In this document: positions 57,701 to 60,700 of the stretch, piece after piece
Position numbering within the stretch: the first letter of the stretch is position 1
Layout: each line of letters starts with the position of its first letter
NCBI RefSeq assembly: GCF_013315695.1
Contig: NZ_CP054353.1
Length of the DNA stretch: 64,000 nt
Reading direction: 5' to 3' (one strand)
Source of the DNA: Escherichia coli
Lineage (GTDB): Bacteria > Pseudomonadota > Gammaproteobacteria > Enterobacterales > Enterobacteriaceae
Position numbers: made by a program

Positions 57701-60700
57701 ACAAAATACCGGCGGCGACCGGAATACCAATGCTGTTGTAGATAAACGCACCGAGCAGGTTCTGCTTCATATTGCGCAGCGTTGCGCGGGAAATCGCGAG
57801 CGCATCCGCAACGCCCATCAGGCTATGGCGCATCAGGGTAATCGCCGCGGTTTCAATGGCAACATCACTGCCGCCACCCATCGCAATGCCGACATCCGCC
57901 TGGGCCAGCGCTGGCGCGTCGTTAATGCCGTCGCCCACCATTGCCACCTGACGTCCTTCACTTTGCAGGCGTTTAATCGCTTCGGCTTTACCGTCCGGCA
58001 GCACCCCGGCGATCACCTCATCAATCCCGGCTTCTTTGGCGATCGCATTGGCGGTGGTTGGGTTATCCCCGGTCAACATCACCAGACGATATCCCGCTTT
58101 ATGCAGGCGTTGCAGCGCCGCCACGCTATCACTACGCAATGGATCGCGTACAGCCAGCAGGGCTACTGCTTTCCCGTCAACCGCCAGCAGCACAGGCGTT
58201 GCCCCTTGCGATGCCTGAGCTGAAATATCTGCCTCAATCGCTTTAGTATCAACTTGCTGGTCATTTAACAGCGCCTGATTGCCCAGCAATAACGCATGAC
58301 CTTCAGCTTCACCGCTCACGCCCAGCCCGCGCAATGTGCGGAAACCGTTGACCTGCGACAGCTGCATATCGCCTGCTTTATCGAGGATCGCTCGTGCCAG
58401 CGGATGGCTGGAACCTTGCTCCAGTGCCGCCGCCAGACGCAATGCCTGCGCTTCATCAACATCAGCAAACGTTTTCACTGCGACAACCTGCGGTTTACCT
58501 TCGGTCAGCGTCCCGGTTTTATCGAACACTACGGTATCGAGCGTACTGGCGCGTTGCAGCGCGTCGGCGTCCCGTACCAGCACGCCAAACTCAGCCGCCC
58601 GCCCGACGCCGGAAATAATCGACATCGGCGTCGCCAGCCCCAGCGCACACGGACAGGCAATAATCAGCACCGTGGTGGCAATCACCAGGGTATAGACAAT
58701 CTGCGGTGCCGGACCAAAGAAATACCAGATTGCCGCACTGACAAGCGCAATAACCACTACTACCGGCACAAATACGGCTGAGATTTTATCCGCCAGTTGG
58801 CCGATTTCAGGCTTGCTGCTCTGGGCCTGGCGCACCATGCGAATGATCCGTGACAGCGTAGTATGGCTGCCGACCGCACTGGCACGAAACAGCACACTGC
58901 CGTCCTGTACCACTGTCCCGGCATGGACGCTATCGCCTTCGCCTTTTTGCTGCGGGATAGGTTCGCCCGTCAGCATCGCTTCATCCAGCCACGCTTCGCC
59001 TTGAGTAATCTCACCATCTACCGGCACACGGTCGCCGGTCGTCAGGCGCAGTAACATACCTGGCTGAACATCTGCCAGCGGCACGTTTTTTTCACCTTCG
59101 TCGGTGACCAGGCGCGCCGTCGGTGGGGTTAAATCGAGTAATTTCTCCAGCGCCTTAGAAGAACGCTGACGCGCGCGCGCTTCCAGCATATGGCCGAGAT
59201 TGATCAGACCGATAATCATCGCGCTGGCTTCGTAATAAAGATGTCGCGCTTCCATCGGGAACCACTGCGGCCACAGGTTGACGCTCATCGAATAGAGCCA
59301 CGCCACGCCAGTACCCAGCGCCACCAGCGTATCCATCGTCGCTGCACCGTTCAGCAGGCTTTTCCATGCGCTGCGGTAAAAATGCCCGCCGGCGAAAACC
59401 ATTACCGCCAGGGTTATCAGGCCGATAACCAACCACAGGCTGCGGTTGTCGGCGGTGACCATCATGTTATCGCCGATCATCCCCCAGACCATCACCGGGA
59501 TACCCACCGCCAGTGCGACAATCGCCTGCCAGCGGAAGCGCTTCATCGTAGCGACGGCGGTTTCTTGCTGGCGCTCGCGGCGTTTAGCGTCATCTTCAAT
59601 CGCTTCCGCGCCGTAGCCCGCTTTTTCCACCGCCTGCACTAAATCTTGTGGGGAGGCACTGCCCATCACCAGCGCAGTACGCTCCGCCAGGTTTACCCGT
59701 GCCTGAGTGACGCCCGGTACGCTTTGCAGCGCATTTTGTACGCGGGTGACACAGCTGGCGCAGCTCATGCCGCTCAGCAGCAACTGCTGGCTGTCATCGT
59801 CATCGGCGGTCGCTGCCGGAAGCGCCTCAGAAACCGCTGTCAGTGCTTCCGACGGGATTGATGACTCCGCCAGCGGTTTAGCCTTTGGGTGGCTTACAGA
59901 TGCGTCATAACCCGCTTGTTTGATGGTTTCGATCAGCTGTTCTGCACTGGCAGTCCCGGTAACGTGCGCTTCAGTGACAGACACATCCGCCTGCTCAACA
60001 TCCGGGCGCTGTTCGAGACTTTCTTTCACGCGTTTAACGCAGTGACCGCAGGACAGGCCGTCCAGGGTCAGGTCGATAGTTTGTGACATAAAACACTCCT
60101 TTTAAGACAGTTTTGACTGGCTGTGATAAAGGTTAAACCTTCCAGCAAGGGGAAGGTCAAGAAATTAATAAACCAGGCGGGTAAAAGTCCGTAAAGATTA
60201 AAAAATCGGCTCGATTTGCATCAGGATTAGACATTTATCTCTTTGTTTTCCTGTAGTTAAGTTGCGGGTGCTAAGTTAAATCAGGATGTCTGAAAATCGG
60301 CACCGGGGTGAGGAATTACCTCCCGCATCTATAAAAAGGAGTTAACAAAAGATGTTAGATGCAAACAAATTACAGCAGGCAGTGGATCAGGCTTACACCC
60401 AATTTCACTCACTTAACGGCGGACAAAATGCCGATTACATTCCCTTTCTGGCGAATGTACCTGGTCAACTGGCGGCAGTGGCTATCGTGACCAGCGATGG
60501 CAACGTCTATAGTGCGGGTGACTGTGATTACCGCTTTGCGCTGGAATCCATCTCGAAAGTCTGTACGTTAGCCCTTGCGTTAGAAGATGTCGGCCCGCAG
60601 GCGGTACAGGACAAAATTGGCGCTGACCCGACCGGATTGCCCTTTAATTCAGTTATCGCCTTAGAGTTGCATGGCGGCAAACCGCTGTCGCCACTGGTAA

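Follow-up and report, generated by a model that had tools for sequence, protein, structure and literature searches.

Results

The copA locus and its promoter

The window analysed here is a stretch of 64,000 nucleotides from Escherichia coli (RefSeq assembly GCF_013315695.1, contig NZ_CP054353.1), and all coordinates refer to it. The only long open reading frame at the site under study occupies 57585..60089 on the minus strand, opens with an ATG at 60089..60087 and encodes an 834-residue zero-frame product. This is CopA, a Cu(+)-exporting P1B-type ATPase, as indicated by its RefSeq name, by a score of 1746 bits against the NCBIfam equivalog NF007952 (cutoff 1316) and by its Pfam domains (two HMA domains, E1-E2_ATPase and Hydrolase). 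A 601-base query covering the copA 5′ end and promoter (59600-60200) found a match in 5422 of 5426 complete E. coli genomes and was 100% identical to E. coli chromosomes among the matches listed. Upstream, glsA and ybaT adjoin copA in a K-12-like order. The locus is a CopA equivalog at the glsA-copA chromosomal position, and the window is E. coli chromosome. Downstream of copA the present strain carries an IS110-family insertion, unlike K-12.

Upstream of copA, a perfect dyad, ACCTTCC-N7-GGAAGGT (60137..60157, minus strand), is located between TTGACC (60160-60155) and TAACCT (60135-60130), which are separated by a 19-bp spacer. We found no canonical sigma-70 promoter with a 16-18-bp spacer upstream of copA. 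In relatives, a divergent MerR-family gene adjoins copA. We take the dyad to be the putative operator of CueR, a MerR-type regulator, in the copper-induced copA promoter; if the promoter is activated by CueR, any two products made from this one transcript would both be copper-induced.

A slippery heptamer and an immediate -1 stop follow the first metal-binding domain

The first-pass annotation had placed a CCCAAAG heptamer on the minus strand at 59883-59889, at about codon 70 and immediately after the first metal-binding domain, and each of these points is borne out. The heptamer can be read directly in the minus-strand sequence GTA AGC CAC CCA AAG GCT AAA CCG CTG. Counted from the ATG at 60089, its phase is C/CCA/AAG, comprising the third base of codon 67 (CAC, His), Pro68 (CCA) and Lys69 (AAG), so that C CCA AAG (59883..59889) has the canonical X XXY YYZ phasing relative to the zero frame. 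The preceding metal-binding domain, MBD1, covers residues 8-62 (59904..60068, minus strand) according to Pfam, and its HMA fold is also indicated by the nearest structures.

In the -1 frame, the heptamer is read as CCC AAA GGC UAA, that is, P, K, G and stop. A slipped ribosome would thus add a single glycine and stop at the UAA at 59880..59878 (59878..59880, minus strand), one codon past the heptamer; translation of the -1 frame and the homologues described below agree on this stop. The recoded coding sequence, which we refer to as CopA(Z), extends over 59878..60089 on the minus strand and consists of codons 1-69 in frame 0, the -1 slip, GGC and UAA. Its product is 70 residues long, begins with MSQ and ends with SHPKG.

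The first-pass annotation had also matched the site to the reported programmed frameshift that yields a copper chaperone of about 70 residues, and the curated record of K-12 MG1655 bears this out, as does the literature considered in the Discussion. That record contains a two-piece joined CDS, YP_009518752.1, named 'soluble Cu(+) chaperone', at 511168..511379, which corresponds to the same 212-base span as 59878..60089 of the window. Over these 212 bases there are three mismatches to K-12, all of them outside the heptamer, the stop and the pseudoknot described below, and the 70-residue products differ by one substitution, I38V.

The 70-residue product has the features of an HMA chaperone

PF00403 matches residues 8-62 of the 70-residue product with 52.1 bits (cutoff 24.8). 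The CxxC copper site in MBD1 is GLSCGHC, in which C14 and C17 are encoded at 60039-60050. The closest structures solved are those of HMA domains and CopZ-type chaperones, among them CopZ in the PDB entries 1cpz and 6ff2. CopA(Z) therefore has the features by which an HMA chaperone is recognized, namely the HMA fold, a GxxCxxC site, a length of about 70 residues and solubility. Against the three NCBIfam CopZ equivalogs NF047957, NF033794 and NF033795 it scored 60.4, 39.4 and 38.1 bits, below the respective cutoffs of 85, 95 and 91, and for this reason it is not filed in any of these named families. CopA(Z) works like CopZ, yet it lies outside the named CopZ families.

The cassette is conserved beyond what the protein requires

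Homologues were collected as copA 5′ regions from 15 other Enterobacterales. A scan of genome contigs was dominated by the generic P-type ATPase motif MVGDGIND and recovered mostly distant CopA genes, with three from Enterobacterales; closer relatives were reached through fragmentary proteins and 12 contig look-ups. In addition, a metagenome scan with the pattern CCCAAAANNTGAGCCGCTGAC returned 30 loci, 29 of which are copA, and these provided 22 distinct copA cassettes.

Absence of the heptamer from homologues had been named in the first-pass annotation as an observation that would count against its reading. Instead, C CCA AAR is kept in the same frame in all 15 Enterobacterales copA genes, as CCCAAAG in 12 and as CCCAAAA in three. 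The 12 carriers of CCCAAAG, which include Citrobacter, Enterobacter, Klebsiella, Atlantibacter, Cronobacter, Erwinia and Pantoea, have it at the end of MBD1. A -1 stop, TAA or TGA, is found exactly one codon past the heptamer in 15/15 homologues and in 22/22 distinct metagenomic cassettes. Within the species, 5341 of 5422 E. coli genomes carry the 86-nt cassette with an identity of 99% or more. Outside Enterobacterales, the 77 distant CopA genes from the contig scan (L006-L082), which served as a negative background set, had no in-frame CCCAAAG following an HMA domain. Two kinds of candidate from this distant set were rejected as chance occurrences: A AAA AAR heptamers, which fall inside an HMA helix (KKAGY motif) and have downstream structure with z between -1.5 and +0.9, and an in-frame CCCAAAA in L032, whose -1 stop is 23 codons away.

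We then asked if the heptamer could be a chance match whose conservation reflects protein constraint on the H-P-K-A-K-P-L linker alone. As a bare 7-mer, CCCAAAG is not above expectation in the window (four occurrences against 8.2 +/- 2.8 expected, with at least four in 97 of 100 shuffles), and the Pro-Lys dipeptide is indeed conserved at the protein level, both of which would suit such an explanation. The neighbouring positions behave differently. The codon preceding the heptamer varies in the residue that it encodes (CAC, CCC, TTC, TCC and others) but ends in C in all 15 homologues. The two zero-frame residues after Lys also vary, being AK, AN, PD, AD, PE, TE or SE among the 15 homologues, and the corresponding codon pairs in the 12 CCCAAAG homologues are GCT AAA, GCT AAC, CCT GAT, GCT GAT, CCT GAG and ACT GAA, but the -1 stop is always encoded. 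Synonymous differences between codon pairs for the same amino acid, compared across seven genera, amount to 45% in codons 2-66 (MBD1) and 11% in codons 73-94, and there are none in 120 pairs at codons 67-72. The frozen synonymous sites and the fixed -1 stop indicate selection on a signal beyond coding needs. The synonymous-site data exclude chance combined with protein constraint, and we give that explanation practically no weight. The case for the heptamer is decided by its frame and position, together with the -1 stop, the structure downstream and the conservation, and not by the bare 7-mer count.

A covarying pseudoknot lies 6 nt downstream

By inspection and an automated helix search we derived a model of an H-type pseudoknot from the E. 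coli sequence downstream of the heptamer, with all arms on the minus strand. Stem 1 pairs CCGCUG (59871..59876) with CAGCGG (59834..59839) and in E. coli can be extended to 9 bp, formed by AAACCGCUG (59871-59879) and CAGCGGUUU (59831-59839). Stem 2 pairs GUCGGAAGC (59845..59853), located between the arms of stem 1, with GCUUCCGGC (59815..59823). Stem 1 begins 6 nt past the heptamer, within the distance of about 5-9 nt downstream at which a stimulatory structure is expected, and the 6-nt spacer includes the -1 stop.

All four arms are supported by covariation. Both stems were recovered automatically in 15/15 homologues, and at most two of 2000 shuffles equalled both stem lengths. In an ungapped alignment of 12 sequences, 93.3% of the cells pair, compared with 23-52% when the partners are slid. 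In a larger alignment of 30 sequences (A3), 93.1% of 477 cells pair, compared with 16-49% for slid partners; 16 of the 30 sequences were retrieved by a pattern containing the heptamer and the 5′ arm of stem 1, so that in this subset the columns of these two elements are conserved by construction. Compensatory changes on both sides were present in 7 of the 16 pairs of A3 (25 cells), a value reached in none of 500 shuffles. One example is the stem 2 pair 53:77, which is G:C in 12 sequences, C:G in eight and U:A in four. Stem 1 also contains compensatory changes, from C:G to A:U in L088 and from C:G to U:A in L090.

Nucleotide conservation between genera ends just past the 3′ arm of stem 2. Loop 3, the linker after stem 2 and all sequence beyond it vary freely in both sequence and length. 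From this free variation past stem 2 we place the 3′ end of the element near 59815, and the variability of these adjacent segments is a further argument against constraint on the linker protein as the source of the conservation.

When folded with nested pairs only, the 100-nt region was unremarkable (z = -1.14). Since the heptamer is not enriched and the nested fold is weak, the structural support rests on the covariation and on the pseudoknot model derived here. A third helix present in the nested minimum-energy fold, GUCAUC:GAUGAC, was dropped, being conserved in close relatives only. An Rfam search of 59000-60400 with E-values up to 10 gave chance-level matches and no copA frameshift family.

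A -1 product from one gene could arise by either of two mechanisms, and the shift might in principle be made by RNA polymerase through transcriptional slippage instead of by the ribosome. Transcriptional slippage needs long homopolymer runs, usually of seven or more A or T. The longest runs at the site are just C3 and A3, which makes this mechanism implausible, and a conserved pseudoknot at a 6-nt spacing is a signature of ribosomal -1 frameshifting; the probability that we assign to slippage by the polymerase is negligible. Ribosomal slippage is the reading that we retain: the site is almost certainly the programmed -1 ribosomal frameshift cassette of E. coli copA.

In some relatives the cassette follows two or three HMA domains

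Three relatives, Photorhabdus (L005), Proteus vulgaris (L091) and L092, are without CCCAAAG after MBD1. Their CopA proteins have extra N-terminal HMA domains, and the cassette is located further downstream, after the second HMA domain in L005 and L092 and after the third in L091. Its parts are an in-phase C CCA AAA, a TGA one codon on and the CCGCUG:CAGCGG stem, and the heptamer of these multi-domain relatives is accordingly CCCAAAA; the stems that accompany this heptamer are longer. Stem 2 takes the compensatory forms GACCGGAAC:GUUCCGGUC, CAACUGGAA:UUCCAGUUG and GCCGGAAU:AUUCCGGC in L005, L091 and L092. The 22 distinct metagenomic cassettes divide into 10 preceded by one HMA domain, 10 by two and two by three, and four of these cassettes have a longer loop 1 enclosed by stem 1.

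In all of these arrangements the cassette immediately precedes the variable linker that leads to the last MBD. It may therefore be a conserved module placed ahead of the linker to the last, membrane-proximal MBD whatever the number of HMA domains, and it would then release chaperones of two or three domains in such lineages; we offer this tentatively, as a possibility somewhat short of an even chance. The frameshift products predicted from the sequences of multi-domain relatives would be about 138-143 residues long with two HMA domains and 206-210 with three. If this variant is real and undescribed, it would show that enterobacterial lineages differ in how many MBDs they release as a chaperone, under an unchanged recoding signal.

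Discussion

The copA/CopA(Z) frameshift is already known and well established, and for the present window both the observation made in the first-pass annotation and its interpretation are confirmed as correct. Our own analysis shows how the cassette is built, that it is conserved, that synonymous change is suppressed in it and that its stems covary; the production and function of CopA(Z) are taken from the literature. Meydan et al. 2017 (Mol Cell 65:207) is the primary paper on the E. coli copA/CopA(Z) frameshift, and Drees et al. 2017 (Mol Microbiol 106:635) is a second paper on the same system. Efficient -1 frameshifting in E. coli copA has been described to yield a 70-residue putative copper chaperone (PMC5009743), the shift is backed by a drop in ribosome profiling density and confirmed by an independent study (PMC9548414), and further literature supports it (PMC10861913). 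Single-molecule assays show that -1 frameshifting is stimulated by the copA pseudoknot (PMC6182138), the nascent chain acts as a stimulator of the copA frameshift too (PMC7558416), and the truncated CopA(Z) protects cells against excess copper (PMC6771820).

A different origin of the short protein has to be weighed against this. The main source of the MBD1 fragment might be a truncated transcript of its own or the proteolysis of CopA, with the heptamer contributing little. Drees et al. 2017, as cited in PMC7558416 and PMC10187127, also invoke a separate short transcript, and a short RNA may on that account contribute as well; the title of the same paper itself includes frameshifting. On the copA strand within 59400-60360 we found no site resembling an intrinsic terminator that could end such a transcript. 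Moreover, neither a truncated mRNA nor proteolysis would select for an in-frame heptamer, a fixed -1 stop and a covarying pseudoknot at canonical spacing. A short transcript or proteolysis as the main source is thus improbable, and programmed frameshifting at the heptamer remains our explanation for CopA(Z).

The following course of events would fit the anatomy of the cassette; we infer the tRNA steps and their order. Once its P site holds tRNA-Pro on CCA (codon 68) and its A site tRNA-Lys on AAG (codon 69), the ribosome would meet the H-type mRNA pseudoknot, which would resist unwinding at the mRNA entry channel. A fraction of the ribosomes would then slip one base in the 5′ direction, with both tRNAs re-pairing in tandem, tRNA-Pro with CCC in place of CCA and tRNA-Lys with AAA in place of AAG. 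The slipped ribosomes would decode GGC (Gly) and terminate at UAA, two codons on, and release MBD1 on its own, as the 70-residue CopA(Z), a Cu(I) chaperone resembling CopZ. The remaining ribosomes would stay in frame and continue to the full 834-residue pump. In this way one copper-induced, CueR-dependent transcript could supply pump and chaperone in a set ratio.

For the window itself the significance is mainly one of annotation. PGAP annotates the 834-residue CopA alone in such genomes and omits the 70-residue chaperone that is present in the curated K-12 record. The copA site is also among the very few chromosomal -1 frameshifts of E. coli outside mobile elements, and the other one, dnaX, is in the same window. 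The comparative data provide independent support, from sequence only, for the published mechanism. As Rfam contains no model for it, the covarying pseudoknot could seed one.

The known system of E. coli K-12, copA/CopA(Z), agrees with the present one in gene, position and heptamer as well as in the -1 stop and the 70-residue product, and nothing of substance differs. The dnaX element (A AAA AAG, Rfam RF00382), which Rfam readily identifies in this window at 40423-40487, is alike in being a chromosomal -1 shift at a slippery site read by tRNA-Lys on AAG, with a near-immediate -1 stop and a shorter N-terminal protein as the outcome, gamma as opposed to tau in the case of dnaX. The dnaX shift is stimulated by an upstream Shine-Dalgarno-like element and a simple downstream stem-loop. 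Unlike dnaX, copA uses a pseudoknot and the nascent chain (PMC7558416), and its element is without an Rfam family whereas that of dnaX has one. The cassettes of the IS3 family and of viruses (gag-pol, coronavirus 1a/1b) share with copA the X XXY YYZ heptamer, the short spacer and the downstream pseudoknot, but there the shifted product is a longer, fused protein, whereas the copA shift truncates the protein and releases a domain. At the level of the product, stand-alone chaperones of the CopZ/Atx1 type, such as CopZ of E. hirae and B. subtilis, are likewise HMA proteins of about 70 residues with a ferredoxin-like fold and a CxxC site that deliver Cu(I) to CopA. The difference is one of origin: stand-alone CopZ has its own gene, whereas CopA(Z) is recoded from copA.

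A frameshift cassette behind two or three metal-binding domains

In Photorhabdus (L005:1911-1990), a further Enterobacterales homologue (L092:1908-1986), Proteus vulgaris (L091:2109-2186) and 12 distinct metagenomic copA genes (among loci L095-L124, from the cassette-pattern scan), the copA frameshift cassette comes after two or three N-terminal HMA domains. Its make-up in these multi-HMA genes is CCCAAAA, a -1 TGA one codon on and a pseudoknot whose stems S1 and S2 covary. From sequence, the chaperones predicted for these genes would carry two HMA domains (~138-143 aa) or three (~206-210 aa). 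Among the database "proteins" with a match to the N-terminus of CopA (P0001-P0120; relatives' loci L083-L094), many were 200-370-aa fragments from complete genomes in which copA is split in the assembly by frameshifts or stops (e.g. L084, L085, L091). The splits bear no relation to the programmed frameshift site and probably reflect sequencing errors or pseudogenes.

In the PGAP-annotated E. coli RefSeq genomes among the records listed (H1-H22), the cassette is covered solely by "copper-exporting P-type ATPase CopA". A joined CopA(Z) CDS was present among these records only in the curated K-12 entry, so the PGAP-annotated genomes listed have no entry for the chaperone. Rfam holds no family for the copA frameshift element. 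It does cover the dnaX -1 ribosomal frameshifting element, which was matched at 40423-40487 on the plus strand (RF00382, 96.8 bits); with copA in the same 64 kb, the window therefore holds both E. coli chromosomal genes that use -1 frameshifting.

Surroundings of copA

Upstream of copA, a perfect dyad, ACCTTCC-N7-GGAAGGT (60137-60157), is flanked by the hexamers TTGACC and TAACCT, which are separated by a 19-bp spacer. A consensus scan found no canonical promoter with a 16-18-bp spacer in this upstream region. The dyad fits an operator of the MerR type, putatively that of CueR.

Three other Rfam matches at gathering level, sroB (the ChiX sRNA; 54894-54977, plus strand), sraA (4995-5090, minus strand) and the small SRP RNA (ffs; 23525-23621, plus strand), are ordinary E. 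coli features.

A 1384-bp insertion (55991-57374), with a precise junction relative to strain 7/2, separates ybaP from the 3′ end of copA. Its ORF (56076-57101, plus strand) codes for an RNA-guided transposase of the IS110 family (NF033542, 359 bits) and is followed 3′, within the insertion, by 273 nt of non-coding sequence. When a 2001-base query across the ybaP-IS-copA junction was compared with 5426 E. coli genomes, a single place matched 80% or more of its length in only 111 of them. As in K-12, sroB adjoins ybaP in the window. The ybaP-copA interval, which carries ybaQ in K-12, is here occupied by the IS110-family insertion.
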